A stretch of DNA of 64,000 nt from Escherichia coli (lineage in GTDB: Bacteria > Pseudomonadota > Gammaproteobacteria > Enterobacterales > Enterobacteriaceae). Position numbers and translations under genes: made by a program. The notes under the pieces were generated by a model. That model made no database searches. It was not told the DNA's origin and saw only the letters and a list, made by a program, of their open reading frames with translations. Location of the stretch: the NCBI RefSeq assembly GCF_041248615.1, contig NZ_CP158426.1; one strand, written 5' to 3'. Positions 19,039-27,203 of the stretch are shown in pieces (the stretch's first letter is position 1; each line of letters opens with the position of its first letter).

Positions 19039-21140
19039 TTAATATTTCATTCTTGCTGGCAAGCCCAACTCTTTACGAAATGGGTTTTCATATTTATCAA
19101 CATTAGCCATCGAGTCAGTTCCATCGTCTTTCATTCCCTTTGCATGCCCCATTTCATGCGCAAGAACCACACTCAACAGAGTGGGTTTCATGGCACATGC
19201 TTTGTTTTTTCCTTGATATACACATGAGCTATGGTCGTTATCAATATCAATGTAAAAACTATATTCAGTATCATCGTAGCATGTTTGGTTTATGCCTTTT
19301 CTTAATCCTCTAAATATATATTCATGCTCTGATGACTCTAATTCTTCTGTTATTTTATGTCCAAACTTTGTTTCTGCTACAGCTTTATATGCTTCTTTTA
19401 AAGTTTTTTGTGTACTTTCATCTCCCTGAAAAGACACTTTTAACCCTAATGGATCGAAACCAGATACCGGATTCAACGGATACTGATAAAAATTCCATCC
19501 CCCCTTAAGCCCAATCGGATCCTGAGTGATATACCGCCCCTGCAGCGGGTCATAATAGCGGTGGCGGTTGTAATAGAGGCCGGACTCCTCATCATACTGC
19601 TGACCCGGCAGGCGGATGAGCTGCTGCAGCTGGTGCGGGTTCTCTTCATTCAGCAGGTTGCCCCATTCATCGTATTCTGCGCACCATTCTGTTGCCCCTT
19701 CCGTGCTGACAAGCGCCAGCGGCAGGCCGCGATGGTCGCAGTGGTACAGGTGGATTTTTCGCGCCGGCGTGTACACCGGGTCCATCTGGTTTTGTATCTG
19801 CTCCACCGTCAGGCCGCACGATGCCAGCCAGCGGCGGCTTTCCTCACTCACCCGGTCAGCCAGGATTTCACTTTCCAGCCGGTCGAGCATCTGCACCAGC
19901 ACCGGCGGGAACACCACACTGCCACCGTCTTCACCGCCGGACTGCTGAAGCGCATCCGCCAGGCTGCGGCGCTGCGTTTTCGCCAGCTCACCGGTGGCAG
20001 TTTCAACTCTGATGAGTGGCGTGAAGCTCCCCGGCTGATAAACCGTCTGGATGCGGGTTCTGTCGTTCTGTATTGTGGTCAGCCGGTCGCCGTCCCAGCC
20101 GTACCAGGTCACTTCCGGTTTCCGTGACAGCGACATCCAGCCCGTCAGGTCCCGTTCACGCCGCCACACCCGTTTTGCCACCCTGCGGCCCAGCGGGTCG
20201 TAAAGATAGCGACTTTCGACCAGCGGCTCTGCATATTGTGTCCGCGTGTAGTGCACCAGCCGGTGCCGGCTGTCGTAATGGTACCGGTGAGTCCGCTCAT
20301 CATCCGTGCGGATAACCCCTTCCGGGATGAGGTCGGTTTTCTCCGTCAGCCTGCCGTGACGGTCATACCGGTAAAGATAGTGCGCGTCACGGGCGATACG
20401 GTTATCCGGCCACATGCTGAGGGTGCTGTCCGGGTGCAGCTCCGGGTCGGGCAGGCGGTTACCTGCCGGGTCCGTGGCATACGGGATGCGGATATCCAGA
20501 TTCGCTGCGGTGGTGTGGACGCCGGTCAGCCTGCCGGTGTCGCTGTAGCTGTAACTCCGGGTCTGGCGCGGGCTGCTGATGCGGATGAGTTCGCCGTTGT
20601 CGTTCCAGGTGTAATCGCGGTCATACTGCAGGCTGTTCAGGTGCTGGCTCTGTAACTGCCCGGCAGAGGTGTAAGCGGTGGTGAGTTCATAACGGCCGAA
20701 GCTGCGCAGCGTTTCCCGGTGCAGGCGGTCGCGGGTGTACTCCACCAGCGGTGTGTCGCCGAGTTTCATGCCTGACAGCCAGCCGCTGCCGTAGGTCAGC
20801 CATTCCACGGCGGGCAGGCTGTCCGGTATACAGCGGTTCGCCAGTCCCTGCGCGTTGTACGCATGTCTGGTTTCATGCTGCCAGAGCAGTGCTTCCGTCT
20901 GCGGGTGATGCACCGTCTGGCGCTCACCGGTCAGGCGGCCTTTCTCATCATACCCGTAATGCACCGTCACCCGGTGGCCTTCGCTGAGATGGCTGATTTG
21001 TGTCAGCCAGCCGCGTTCGTCGTACCGCCACTGTTCTGCGGTTTCACCATTCACCGTTCGCTGTGTGATGCGGTCTGCTTCGTCATAGTGCCAGTGGGTG
21101 ACCAGCCCCTCATCCTCGCTGCGGTGCGTATTACCGTGAA
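19039..21140 (-). pseudogene. rhs C-terminal segment: YD-repeat core end (…DPIGL…DPLGL) plus HExxH metallopeptidase-like toxin tip; separated from the rest of rhs by an IS21-family insertion
   Basis: ORF 19039..21159; Rhs YD repeats; core-end motif [39 protein letters not shown], then ~130-aa AT-rich tail containing [12 protein letters not shown]. Confidence 0.8.
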
Positions 21141-21209
21141 GGAGATCGGTGAGTAACATCGATGGAGATCGGTTCGTGTCACTTTCACAGAACCGTTTTT
21201 AAATTACCT

Positions 21210-21959
21210 TCACTGATCTCCTTCGGTCAACGGAGATTGTATTTTCCGCATTGATTCTCCTTTAAGTTCGATCTTGATACTGCCATGAACCAGTCGATCT
21301 AGGATGGCATCCGCATGTGTGGAGTCTCCGATCATTTTGTACCAGTTTTCCACCGGCAACTGGCTCACTACGATGATTGAGCCTCGTTGGTACATCAGAT
21401 CCACTATTTCCAGCAGGTCGCTACGCTGTTCTGATGAGAGAGGTTCCAGCCCCCAGTCATCCAGAAGCAGCAGATCGCTATTATTCAGCCTGGTCAAAAG
21501 TTTGCTGTATCTTCCATCAGCATGCCCCTGATAGCACTGTTCCATCAGCGCTTTAAGGCGATAATAGTAGACCTTGTATCCCTGTCGGCAGGCATTATGA
21601 CCAAGTGCACATGCCAGGAACGTTTTACCGCTGCCGGTGGCCCCGGTCAGTAAAATATTTTGTTTCAGGGTTAACCAGTTTCCCTGACTGAGTGAACGGA
21701 TGAGGGCCCTGTCCAGCCCTCTATTGTTACGATAATCCAGCTTTGATAACTCAGCATTAAGTCTGAACCGTGCATGTTTGATCAGACGCTCTGCCTTCCT
21801 GTTTTCACGGCAGGTTAGTTCTTCTGCTGTCAGTAATGACAGGCGTTCTTCGAAGCCCAGCTCCTGGTATGTGCCCGGCTGAGCAAGTTGCTTTTTAAGC
21901 GCATCACGGAAGCCGGTGAGTTTAAGTGCGGTCAGTTGTTCGTAAAGATGATTCATCAT
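21210..21959 (-). CDS. istB: IS21-family helper ATPase IstB
   Basis: 249-aa ORF with Walker A GATGSGKT and DnaC-like AAA+ fold signature. Confidence 0.9.
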   Translation of the reverse strand: MMNHLYEQLTALKLTGFRDALKKQLAQPGTYQELGFEERLSLLTAEELTCRENRKAERLIKHARFRLNAELSKLDYRNNRGLDRALIRSLSQGNWLTLKQNILLTGATGSGKTFLACALGHNACRQGYKVYYYRLKALMEQCYQGHADGRYSKLLTRLNNSDLLLLDDWGLEPLSSEQRSDLLEIVDLMYQRGSIIVVSQLPVENWYKMIGDSTHADAILDRLVHGSIKIELKGESMRKIQSPLTEGDQ

Positions 21960-21970
21960 TGGATCCCGTA

Positions 21971-23512
21971 TCAGTGGTAATACTCACTGCCGCGTACGTT
22001 TTCGTGTTCCATCGTGGATAACAGATCTGGTTTTGGATCCTGAACAGGTTGTTTATCCAGACCTTTTTCCAGGATCGATTTAATACCTGACAGACGCCAT
22101 ACCTTTGTTTTCAGAGCTCTTGCACATGCTGCATTAAGTCTGGCTTTACTGTATTTTTTATGAAGGTTCAGGAGTCCAAGGCAGAAGCGATAGCTTTGTT
22201 CCGGATGTGGACGAGAGTTCAGTATATGAAGCACATAACTATGAGTTTCACTGCCTATGTGCCCCGCCCATTCCAGAAGACGCTCTGGCGTCCAGGTGGC
22301 ATGCTGTCGATGAGCTTCAGGCATGTGCTCGTTGCGGGTACTGTAGCCATAAGTACGCTTGCGCGGGTGCACAGCAACCTCCTGCCCCTGATTGAAGAGT
22401 CTTACCAGTTCTCCGGAGATCCATGCTTCCAGTTGCTGGCCTAACAGCGAACATGGAACCGAGTAGTAATGTTTGTCGATTTCCACGTGGTAATCGGCAT
22501 GAACTCTGACTTTCTTCACCAGGGTGTAACTGTAACTGGCTTCAGGAAGAGGCTTCAGTGCGGGTTTATCAAGCTGGATGAAGAGTTCTGCACGTGAATA
22601 ACCCAACTTCTGCATTATTTTGTTATTCAGTCTTTCCAGCAACTCCCGAATGCGCTGATTAAGCGATGCAAGGCTGTAGAAGATCTCATGCCTGATTCGG
22701 GCCATGATCCAGCGTTCAACAACCTGAACGCCAACTTCAGCTTTGGCTTTATCTTTCGGTTTACGTGGCCGCGCAGGCAAAACTGCGACATTATAATGCT
22801 CAAGCATCTGCTGGTAGGTAGGGTTAACGTCAGGATCATACTTACATGCCCTGGATGTGGCGCTTTTCAGATTGTCCGGAACAACAAGTTCAGGAACGCC
22901 ACCCAACCACTGGAAGCAGCGAACATGACTCATCACCCAGTCTTCAAGCTGCTGAGACCAGGTGGCCTCTGCCCATGTGTAACTTGATGCCCCGAGAACA
23001 GCTACGATGACCTGAGCAGTTCTTATTTCTCCGGTCTCAGGGTCGGTAACGCCAACGGTAGGTCCACAGTAATCAACGAAAAGTTTTTCGCCAGCTTTAT
23101 GTACCTGACGCATTGATGGTGAAGTGGTTTTGAGCCATTCACGGTACATCCGGCAGTAATGGTTATAGCTGTAAAAACCGCCTGGATTACGCTCACAGTA
23201 TTCTTCCCAGAGTAGCTGCAGCGTCACGCATTTATTACGCAGTTCCCGGTGTACTGTAGCCCAGTCAGGCAGAGAGTGCTTCTTCATCTTAACCTGGGTC
23301 TGAAGGAACGCATGTTTTAGTTTTGTATCATCCCATCCTGTAGGTAAGGGCCACTGCTTTATGCCAAGTTGAGCCGCCCGATTAGCATATCTGGATACAA
23401 CGGAAGGGGAGATTGCAAGACTACGACCAATTTGTCGATGGCTGAGTCCAACACCGTATTTAAGCCTAAGAATTTCTTTAAGTTTTCTCATAGAAATTGG
23501 AACTGTTGGCAT
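21971..23512 (-). CDS. istA: IS21-family transposase IstA
   Basis: 513-aa ORF with N-terminal HTH and integrase-type DDE core; immediately upstream of istB. Confidence 0.9.
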   Translation of the reverse strand: MPTVPISMRKLKEILRLKYGVGLSHRQIGRSLAISPSVVSRYANRAAQLGIKQWPLPTGWDDTKLKHAFLQTQVKMKKHSLPDWATVHRELRNKCVTLQLLWEEYCERNPGGFYSYNHYCRMYREWLKTTSPSMRQVHKAGEKLFVDYCGPTVGVTDPETGEIRTAQVIVAVLGASSYTWAEATWSQQLEDWVMSHVRCFQWLGGVPELVVPDNLKSATSRACKYDPDVNPTYQQMLEHYNVAVLPARPRKPKDKAKAEVGVQVVERWIMARIRHEIFYSLASLNQRIRELLERLNNKIMQKLGYSRAELFIQLDKPALKPLPEASYSYTLVKKVRVHADYHVEIDKHYYSVPCSLLGQQLEAWISGELVRLFNQGQEVAVHPRKRTYGYSTRNEHMPEAHRQHATWTPERLLEWAGHIGSETHSYVLHILNSRPHPEQSYRFCLGLLNLHKKYSKARLNAACARALKTKVWRLSGIKSILEKGLDKQPVQDPKPDLLSTMEHENVRGSEYYH

Positions 23513-23693
23513 AGGTATCCTTTACCGGAATGGCAAAAGATACAGATCAACACACCTGTGAAGTTCCAATAACATTGATGGAGATCACTGAATAACAAAA
23601 TGAGTCAAAAGTGATCTCCATCGATGTTATTCAGCGATCTGTTCAAATGTTATTACCCGATCTCGATGGAAGTTATTGAGTGATCTCCTTTCA

Positions 23694-24723
23694 TGAAAAT
23701 ACGCACTGCGGATAAGTTTACCGGTCAGGTCGTGGTGATAACGCTGTGTGCGGCCGTCAAAGCCGGTTTCCTGTATCAGCCGGTCGAGTACATCGTAACG
23801 GAAGGTGGTGTGGCTGCCGTTTTCACTGGTCAGGCGGATGACCCGTCCGGCAGCATCGTATTCCATACTGCGCGTCAGACCGCCCTGTGTGGTACGGATG
23901 GCCTTTCCCCACGCATCGTACTGTGTCCCGTTTCTGCTGCCGTCCGGGGCAATGACGGCGGTCAGGTCACCGGCGGCGTTGTATTCATACCGCGTTTCAT
24001 GGCCCTGCGTGTCTTTCACCGCAATTAACTGTCCACGGCTGTCGTATGCGCGGTACTGACTCAGCCCTTCCTCGCGGTGCACCGCCGTCACCTGACCAAA
24101 ACGGTCATGGTCATAACGGGTTACATAACCGGAACAGTCAGTGACGGTCAGCAACTGACCGTAACGGCTCCATGTCATGGTTTTCCGGCTGCCGGTGGCA
24201 TCTTCCGTTGCGCAGGGTAAGTCACTGTGTGGATTATCATAACGGTAGCGGGTGATATCGCCGTTGTGTGCGGTTTCCTGAATCAGACGGCCGGATTCAT
24301 CATATTCCCGGCGCAATTCCAGCCCGTCAGGCCCGGTGGCTGACGTTAACTGGCTGTGGTGGTTATAGTAAAATGCCGATGCCCTGCCATCCGGTGTGGT
24401 GATGCGCGTGATGAGTCCCGTCACCACATCCGGGCTGTACTCAGTCGTCCGGCCTGCGGCATCCGTCTGTGCCTTAAGCCTGCCCACCGCGTCAAACTGA
24501 CTCTGCGTGACGCTGCCGTCCGCGTGTTCCTTTTTCACCACCCGCTTCAGCCCGCCTTCGCCCTGCGTGTGCAGCACTTCACGGCGGTCCAGGCTGTCGG
24601 TGATGGTGATGTGGTCTTTCTCATACTGATACGTGTAGCTTAAGCCTGCCGGGTTTAGCTGTTCTGTCACCCGCCCGTCACTGTCGTAACGGTAACGGAT
24701 TTCCGGCCGGCCCGTGTGACGGT
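23694..24723 (-). pseudogene. rhs middle segment (YD-repeat region) lying between the two IS insertions
   Basis: ORF 23627..24670 with repeated YD/RYxYD motifs (…RYRYDNPH…YVTRYDHDRFGQ…YEYNAAGDL…); frame continues upstream to the IS3-family boundary. Confidence 0.8.
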
Positions 24724-25478
<755 letters not shown>

Positions 25479-25582
25479 ATCAGCATACTTGTCCTTAGCC
25501 TTCTGCAGTGACAGCTGGTAGTACAGCGTGCTTCTGGCCAGCCCTGCAGCCTTTAACAGGTCAGACTGGCAGTGTCCGCACC

Positions 25583-26113
25583 TCAGGCTCCGGATGACTT
25601 TCGTTTTTTCTCCAGCTCCTGGCGCTTTTTTTCCAGGAGATGCTCCTGCATGGCTTTCAGATATGCATTTTCTGCGCGAAGATAACGCAGCTCATTCTTC
25701 ATCTCTTCCGGCGTCATGTTTGCCTCGTTTTCATGGGTATCATCAGAACGGGTCATGCTTTTCTCCTTCCTGCGCCTGATAAAGGCCTCATTACCAGATT
25801 TGCGGTAGCCTTTTATCCAGTTTTTAACCGTGTTGTGGCTGGGAATGTTAAACCGGGCAGCTACCCGGGGTAGAGACTCAGAATGCCCGAGAGCATAAAG
25901 AACCACGCAAAGTTTATCTTCAGGAGAATAGCTACGCTTGTGTCTGCAATCCAGTGCCCGAGGACCGTGAAGAAGAAAAAGATTAATCCAGTGTGAGAGG
26001 CTGGTGTGAGAAAGTTGAAAGAGTTTTGCCGTAGAAATGATGCCTGTATGACCAGCCAGGTAATGATTTACAGCGGCAAGTTTTACTTCAAATGAATGTT
26101 TCATAAACTGCAC
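25583..26113 (-). CDS. IS3-family transposase OrfA (HTH)
   Basis: 176-aa ORF with HTH region and leucine-zipper-like C-terminus; contains A-AAA-AAG slippery heptamer near its 3' end. Confidence 0.85.
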   Translation of the reverse strand: MQFMKHSFEVKLAAVNHYLAGHTGIISTAKLFQLSHTSLSHWINLFLLHGPRALDCRHKRSYSPEDKLCVVLYALGHSESLPRVAARFNIPSHNTVKNWIKGYRKSGNEAFIRRRKEKSMTRSDDTHENEANMTPEEMKNELRYLRAENAYLKAMQEHLLEKKRQELEKKRKSSGA

Positions 26114-26155
26114 CTTCAGATGTCAGATTATGTCCAACATTTGGGGTGCAGTTCA

Positions 26156-27203
26156 GGTGCGCCACCATCCGGCCCCGGTATTTATCATCGTAAGTAAAGC
26201 TGCGCACCTGTGTATTGCTGCGGTCATACACCGCCGCCAGTTCGCCGCGTGGCGTCCAGCCATAGCGCACCAGCGGCGCGGCAGGTAAATTCTCCGGGTA
26301 TTCCGGGTCGTGCGTCAGCCACACGGCAGACAGACGGATGCCGTTGTCCCGGCCATATTCGGTGTAACCCGGCAGGGTATCAGGAAAAACGGACGGTTCC
26401 ATCCCGCCGGAAATGGCCTGCTGCCGGGCTTCTTCTGCCCGCTGCGCCTGCGTGGTCAGTACCAGCCGGAAGTGACGCCCGGCACCATCCGTCACGCCGG
26501 TGATTTCGCCGCTGAATTCGCCGCCAGCCTCACGGTGGAACGTCTGTGTGCGCCCGAAGCGGTCCACCAGCCCGGTCAGTACCCGGTACGGCGGCAGCGG
26601 CGCAGGCAGCACCTCATCCGCCTCCGGCACCCGCTCACACCAGCCGAGTACCCACCACGGCCCCTGCGGACTGTTCGTCGCCAGATAACGATGCGGACTC
26701 AGGCGAAGCTCTTCCGGCAGCGCCTGCCAGAGTGCGGCCAGCCGGTGACCTTCATCCAGTTTCGCCACGCCGCCGCGCACCAGCCAGAGTGACTCGCTGC
26801 GGCTGTAACCGTCCTCACCGGGAAACAGGTGCTCAAAATACAGGCTTCTGCCGCCGTTATCACTGAGTATCAGTGTGTTATCGCGCAGCTGTAAGCGGAT
26901 ATCCGCAGGCATTTTCCAGCCGGGGCCGAGGCTCCCCACCGGCGCGGGCGTTTTTGTCCGGTAACTGCTGTAGGTGCGGGAGAGGATGAACGGCAGCGGG
27001 CCGGGCAGGGCAAGGTCGGTTTCGCCGGGAAGGACCTTCGCGCCGAGCAGCGGATTGACCGGATGGCCGGACGTCACCCCGCCGGGGCACACCGAACAGG
27101 CCACGCCGGTGGGGGCACCGATGCGCACCCCGGCTGAACCCTGGACAATGCTACCGCCATACTGCGTCATGTCGCCCTGACGCGCCGCCGGTTTTCCGCT
27201 CAT
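26156..27203 (-). pseudogene. rhsA: rhs N-terminal segment (PAAR-like N-terminus), truncated by the IS3-family insertion
   Basis: Starts MSGKPAARQGDMTQYGGSIVQGSAGVRIGAPTGVACSVCPGG..., the conserved Rhs N-terminus; divergent from yibF as recalled for rhsA; reading frame runs into the IS. Confidence 0.82.

Follow-up and report, generated by a model that had tools for sequence, protein, structure and literature searches.

The two overlapping open reading frames on the minus strand at 24756-26104 of the window, the 64,000-nt stretch of Escherichia coli DNA analyzed here (NZ_CP158426.1), should be annotated as a single transposase gene with a frameshift, belonging to an IS1397 copy that looks intact, instead of as a pseudogene or a pair of genes. 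With a probability of roughly 0.9, two lysyl-tRNAs would slip in tandem by -1 on the slippery heptamer A_AAA_AAG at 25625-25631, giving the fusion protein OrfAB, and the ribosomes that do not slip would produce OrfA. This frameshift site is real, and it was already known and annotated. Indeed, the orfA of IS1397 was catalogued as cluster A_AAA_AAG_5 by Sharma, Prere, Canal, Firth, Atkins, Baranov and Fayet (NAR 2014, PMC4066793), for whom -1 frameshifting in this element "can be safely inferred", rather than demonstrated. The alignment divergence of that cluster is only 0.02 (Sharma et al. 2014, PMC4066793), which is too low to test conservation, and the diverged relatives collected in this study therefore fill this gap.

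The element was identified by its nucleotide identity to RefSeq copies as a complete IS1397 of 1432 bp with TG...CA ends, located at 24724-26155 on the minus strand. A nucleotide search of RefSeq found copies identical over 1432/1432 bp (100%) in two E. coli chromosomes, NZ_OW967178 and NZ_LT599825, and many further copies that are 99.5-99.9% identical and annotated as 'IS3-like element IS1397 family transposase'. A preliminary description of this DNA had assigned the element to the IS3 family; this holds, and near-identity to the named copies narrows it to IS1397, of the IS150 group. For the identical copy of NZ_OW967178, RefSeq gives a two-piece coding sequence of 1349 nt, with the same ends as in the window and the note 'programmed frameshift'. 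The left terminal inverted repeat, TGAACTGCACCCCAAA, is found at 26140-26155 (minus strand) and the right one, TGAACTGAACCCCAAA, at 24724-24739 (plus strand), with one mismatch to the left repeat; the imperfect repeats of both ends are described by TGAACTG[C/A]ACCCCAAA. They were located by eye and by pattern search, as a repeat search using 9-nt seeds missed them because of the mismatches they carry, and the pattern has two matches in the whole window against 0.09 expected. The element is flanked by a 3-bp target-site duplication, ACC, at 26156-26158 (left copy) and 24721-24723 (right copy) on the minus strand (...GGCGCACC-IS-ACCGTCAC...). The open reading frames, inverted repeats, 3-bp duplication and DDE motifs (below) are together consistent with the copy of the window being functionally intact, as had been proposed.

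Not all copies look like this one. Some E. coli copies of IS1397 are annotated as 'frameshifted' pseudogenes, such as the copy with a 5-nt deletion in L025. In others, an internal deletion (region ~25690-25790) fuses orfA, at a point upstream of the heptamer, directly to the -1 frame (...NEAFIRRSPGKKAPGAGEK...), and the product of these copies is constitutively fused and truncated.

The search for open reading frames and domains placed orfA at 25583-26104 on the minus strand, from the ATG at 26104 to the TGA at 25585-25583. It encodes a protein of 173 aa with HTH_28 and HTH_Tnp_1 domains, and this exact protein belongs to a cluster of 2287 E. coli sequences. The open -1 frame that constitutes orfB spans 311 codons at 24756-25691 (minus strand) and encodes HTH_21, rve and rve_2 domains, with the DDE motifs WVTDITEF, HSDQGWHY and NAVMENFFGHLK in its translation. 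The two genes overlap by 106 nt. Frame analysis agrees with the earlier statement that orfB lies in the -1 frame relative to orfA: the frame is open from 25691 to 24756, with no stop codon between the heptamer and 25478. It should be noted that position 25478, which had been described as the first Met of this frame, carries a GTG codon; it is the first in-frame start of the orfB frame.

Near the 3' end of orfA, the minus-strand string in which the frameshift signal had been recognized, CTGGAAAAAAAGCGC, is present at 25637-25623. The heptamer within it, located by pattern search and from the orfA codons, occupies 25625-25631 on the minus strand, where the codons GAA AAA AAG (25633-25625) set the phase A_AAA_AAG (phase 2 from the orfA start) and the -1 frame is open, in line with the signal proposed. 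The heptamer A_AA.A_AA.G has been measured to be among the most efficient ones in E. coli, a property for which the shiftiness of tRNA-Lys(UUU) is held responsible (Sharma et al. 2014, PMC4066793).

Two lysine codons could nevertheless form such a motif by accident, with OrfB made separately or the copy being inactive. The sequence AAAAAAG is frequent in the 64-kb window, with 21 copies on both strands against 13.4 expected (~1.6e-4 per position), and OrfA proteins typically have Lys-rich tails. However, only ~0.006 in-phase copies are expected by chance among the ~35 in-phase positions of the overlap. The orfB frame of IS1397 also offers no start before the GTG at 25478, and a protein initiated there would lack ~50 N-terminal codons upstream of the HTH_21 match. 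Moreover, transposition in the IS3 family generally requires the fusion protein, as for IS150 and IS911.

Diverged relatives provide a further argument against such an accident. They were gathered from plasmids by tblastn and blastn, and were completed with OrfA homologs at 53-59% identity taken together with their DNA. The subclade of IS1397 (n=8) consists of IS1397 itself, the elements of Pantoea sp. SO10 and Erwinia sp. AnSW2-5, and five metagenome contigs. The 14-mer GGAAAAAAAGCGCC shows no substitution in any of the eight members (8/8), the seven relatives at 53-59% OrfA identity included, and each member has its heptamer in phase; the motif is thus conserved in diverged relatives beyond coding need. 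In L018 and L020, the opening of the -1 frame precedes the heptamer by just 3 nt; as no further A-run occurs in L020 ahead of the orfA stop, a slip in that element would have no slippery motif other than the heptamer to use. Within E. coli, 1720 of 5426 complete genomes contain the frameshift region, at a total of 5232 places, and copies that have diverged in this region (97-98.7% identity) keep both A-runs unaltered.

The same relatives also bear on a separate synthesis of OrfB. Six of the seven (L017-L022) end orfA with TAGTG, in which a GTG of the orfB frame overlaps the stop codon, and gene callers begin orfB at this GTG. This arrangement suggests that OrfB may also be made independently in these elements by translational coupling, and it is a point in favor of the accidental reading of the heptamer. 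IS1397 carries GTC where these six elements have GTG, and therefore has no such overlapping start; its orfA is four codons longer. Given the invariance of the heptamer nucleotides over this divergence, we regard a mere Lys-Lys coding accident as extremely unlikely, and programmed slippage at the heptamer as the preferred explanation.

Slippage at the heptamer would yield an OrfAB transframe transposase of 449 aa, encoded at 24756-26104 on the minus strand, with 26104-25625 read in frame 0 and 25625-24756 in frame -1. Reading frame 0 through AAG and reading the G again gives ...LLEKK/APGAGEKTKVIRS..., and the conceptual junction peptide predicted for a slip at the first heptamer is ...LLEKKAPGAGEK.... 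Pfam detects HTH_28, HTH_21, rve and rve_2 in the conceptual OrfAB, which matches the IS3 family transposase model of NCBIfam (NF033516) with 387.8 bits over model positions 1-369/369. Alignment with transposases of the IS150 group, the check suggested with the original proposal, showed that the fusion is colinear across the junction with IS150 and 19 relatives. An exact protein look-up of the two candidate fusions, for a slip at the first or at the second A-run, found neither sequence, with OrfA alone on record. We also considered a partial fused protein from NCBI (P0021) as evidence for the junction and rejected it, as it is a deletion derivative that is uninformative on this point.

The second A-run concerns an A-rich stretch downstream of the heptamer that the preliminary description had pointed out as well. 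This stretch, GAGAAAAAACGAAAG, is indeed present at 25612-25598 (minus strand), where it codes for the Lys-rich OrfA tail and corresponds to the loop of a predicted hairpin, but it does not qualify as a second signal, being out of phase and absent in L020. We nonetheless weighed the possibility that the frame changes at, or also at, this run (25612-25601), to give the fusion ...QELEKK/TKVIRS.... The -1 frame is open there too; an A-site AAA preceded by A forms a weak Z_ZZN-type motif, with GGAG immediately upstream; and the resulting fusion scores almost as well on the IS3 model (386.7 against 387.8 bits), so the NCBIfam scores have no power to separate the two candidate junctions. The frame 0 codons of the run, GAG AAA AAA CGA, however, contain no in-phase X_XXY_YYZ heptamer. 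The run also varies among relatives, reading GAGAAAAAG (GAG AAA AAG) in L003, L017 and L021 and GAGACAAAA (GAG ACA AAA CGA) in L020, while the first heptamer is invariant. In addition, tetramer motifs require a strong stimulator (Sharma et al. 2014, PMC4066793), and no structure follows the second run, because the run sits inside the hairpin loop. A frame change at the second run is thus hardly probable at all, and the invariance of the first heptamer, set against a second run that is variable and out of phase, designates the former as the site.

An OrfAB protein could also arise by standard translation if RNA polymerase stuttered on the A7 and added one A to the transcript. A run of seven A residues is indeed present (25632-25626), and Baranov et al. 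reportedly described transcriptional slippage in IS3-family members in 2005. Such slippage is also known for some IS3-family members from another source (PMC6211511). Several features argue against this explanation. The relatives conserve precisely A7 plus G, in the phase that allows tRNA re-pairing, and a Shine-Dalgarno-like element stands at a distance that is known to favor ribosomal -1 shifting. The productive slippage known from bacterial IS elements takes runs of ~9 or more A/T, and the A7 run is shorter. Transcriptional slippage is therefore very unlikely to be the source of OrfAB, and we retain ribosomal slippage on the heptamer.

Two candidate stimulators surround the heptamer. The first is a Shine-Dalgarno-like AGGAG at 25643-25647 (minus strand), separated from the first base of the heptamer by an 11-nt spacer (25642-25632), with a duplex energy of -6.6 kcal/mol with the 3' end of the 16S rRNA. 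The spacer fits the range of 6-17 nt of Shine-Dalgarno-like stimulators of -1 frameshifting (Sharma et al. 2014, PMC4066793). GGAG or GGGAG is found at the same spacing in seven of the eight subclade members, the exception being L019, which has CAGGCG instead, and L020 keeps the Shine-Dalgarno-like sequence despite altered encoded amino acids. Its conservation as a signal is only suggestive, since GAG makes up about half (~50%) of the Glu codons of the subclade elements and the sequences are related.

The second candidate, obtained by RNA folding, is an imperfect hairpin of 38 nt at 25584-25621 on the minus strand (CAGG..CUGGAGA...UC.UCCGG..CCUG). It begins 3 nt past the heptamer and extends into the orfA stop codon, of which it takes up the first two bases. 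Its folding energy is -12.4 kcal/mol (z = -3.43), with 2/200 shuffles being as stable. The 3-nt spacer is shorter than the usual heptamer-hairpin spacer of 5-9 nt. The anatomy of the hairpin and Shine-Dalgarno-like element matches the parameters published for the IS1397 cluster, namely presence in 100% of the members (score 1.00) for both elements and a hairpin of 38 nt with a 3-nt spacer and a first stem of 4 bp (Sharma et al. 2014, PMC4066793). The equivalent segment of the seven relatives folds weakly or differently (z from -0.01 to -1.5), and the consensus that RNAalifold derived from the eight subclade members is weak (-12.85 kcal/mol; covariation term, -0.22). Counts of base pairs on the same eight-sequence alignment showed no informative covariation for this hairpin, as 129/500 shuffles performed equally well, and Rfam gave no match across 24700-26200, even at E <= 1. 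We discarded another hairpin, CUCCUGG/CCAGGAG, whose loop would hold the heptamer, as a candidate signal: with a z-score of -0.59, the 141-nt fold does not stand out, and L018 and L020 no longer have the two arms.

These features suggest the following course of events. Ribosomes translating orfA would arrive at GAA-AAA-AAG (25633-25625), where a fraction of them would slip back by one base, as the tRNA-Lys in both the P site and the A site exchange AAA-AAG for AAA-AAA. The slipped ribosomes would go on in the orfB frame and produce the 449-aa OrfAB, which links the helix-turn-helix and coiled-coil part of OrfA to the HTH_21 and DDE catalytic part. Those that do not slip would stop 14 codons further on, at the TGA at 25585-25583, and release the 173-aa OrfA. 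The AGGAG located 11 nt upstream, which could pair with the 3' end of the 16S rRNA, probably raises the frequency of slipping, as does, again probably, the 38-nt hairpin located 3 nt downstream. We infer from the sequence features of IS1397 both that slippage occurs and that its frequency probably depends in part on these stimulators.

The insertion site of this copy differs from what has been described for the element. The insertion of IS1397 has been reported to be REP-specific (PMC1525189), and the copy of the window sits inside the core coding sequence of an Rhs gene, not in an intergenic REP/BIME. The identical copy of NZ_OW967178 is in the same Rhs gene, beside yibF-selA-selB. We compared the flanks of the window (24700-24723 and 26156-26180) with those of L002 (1483-1500 and 2933-2952). 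The target in the window is REP-like but not a REP (GCCGGATGGTGGCGCACC-IS-ACCGTCACACGGGCCGGCC); four other IS1397 copies are flanked by GCC[G/T]GATGCG[G/A]CG..., and the copy of E. coli 042, the sole one with both flanks available, reads GCCGGATGCGGCGTGAAC-IS-GAACGCCTTATCCGGCCTAC. The distance from GCCGGATG to the insertion is 18 nt both in the window copy and in that of E. coli 042; the two copies ending in GCGTGAAC (L002 and L025) show this spacing. The target duplication is of 3 bp (ACC) in the window versus 4 bp (GAAC) in E. coli 042. Compared with the catalogued IS1397, the element itself shows no differences, and its insertion site in an Rhs coding sequence is the sole unusual feature.

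A second insertion, of the IS21 family and annotated as ISEc12, splits this Rhs gene ~1.1 kb downstream of IS1397 (~21100-23650, minus strand; istB at 21210-21959 and istA at 21971-23512). NZ_LT599825.1 carries both insertions and is 100% identical to the window throughout them. In NZ_OW967178, the Rhs gene likewise contains IS1397, but it runs on for ~3.1 kb past the element.

The present analysis matters little beyond the correct annotation of this gene. The comparative data nevertheless add a divergence that has no counterpart in the published survey, and they identify the first heptamer as the slip site. They also bear on how recoding signals change within the IS150 group: we lean, at little better than even odds, towards a scenario in which the IS1397 lineage (IS1397 and at least seven relatives from Pantoea, Erwinia and metagenomes) moved its recoding site eight codons downstream, lost a long stem present in other members of the group, and came to rely on the Shine-Dalgarno-like sequence upstream, helped by a short hairpin at most. 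If true, a frameshift signal would have migrated and swapped its type of stimulator while the protein stayed colinear.

The putative signal of IS1397 resembles those of two known systems. In E. coli dnaX, A_AAA_AAG is combined with a Shine-Dalgarno-like stimulator ~10-11 nt upstream and a downstream hairpin. IS911 has the same heptamer, also with an upstream Shine-Dalgarno-like stimulator at ~10-11 nt and a downstream hairpin, as in IS1397 (see PMC4066793 for IS911 and the Shine-Dalgarno rule). dnaX and IS911 are genes unrelated to that of IS1397, and the roles of the Shine-Dalgarno-like sequence and hairpin, demonstrated in these two systems, are predicted ones in IS1397.

A closer comparison is provided by IS150 of E. 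coli K-12 (insJ/insK), for which frameshifting was reportedly shown experimentally by Vogele et al. in 1991. IS150 shares with IS1397 the A_AAA_AAG heptamer, the 0/-1 layout of the open reading frames and a colinear OrfAB of ~450 aa. IS150 and 13 other relatives carry their in-phase heptamer where YLKK(L) is encoded, as TTA/CTA AAA AAG. The IS1397 subclade, in contrast, has AYLKA(M) and no heptamer at this position, and its own heptamer is found eight codons (24 nt) downstream. Sequence comparison thus shows a relocation of the heptamer within the IS150 group. IS150 and most relatives also harbor a long stem, GCCUUAGUUCA.../...UGAAUUAAGGC (GCCUUAG.../...CUAAGGC), which starts ~6 nt past the heptamer and encloses the orfA stop, whereas IS1397 and its seven closest relatives are without a long stem of the IS150 type. 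Folding of the 13 relatives other than IS150 gave z-scores from -2 to -6 in 10 of them. We infer from these differences that the type of stimulator changed in the IS1397 lineage.

The long stem is common to IS150 (L026) and most of L004-L016, which come from Bacillus, Priestia, Pantoea, Acinetobacter, Pseudomonas, Rahnella and E. coli; it was not seen in the elements of Ralstonia and Cupriavidus (L014 and L015). By inspection, several of its positions look compensatory. The fusion proteins of the IS150 and IS1397 types are colinear, and the switch point in the linker alone differs between them. The position of this site in the linker of IS1397, compared with that of IS150, provides a small but clean example of recoding signals shifting within a transposase family.
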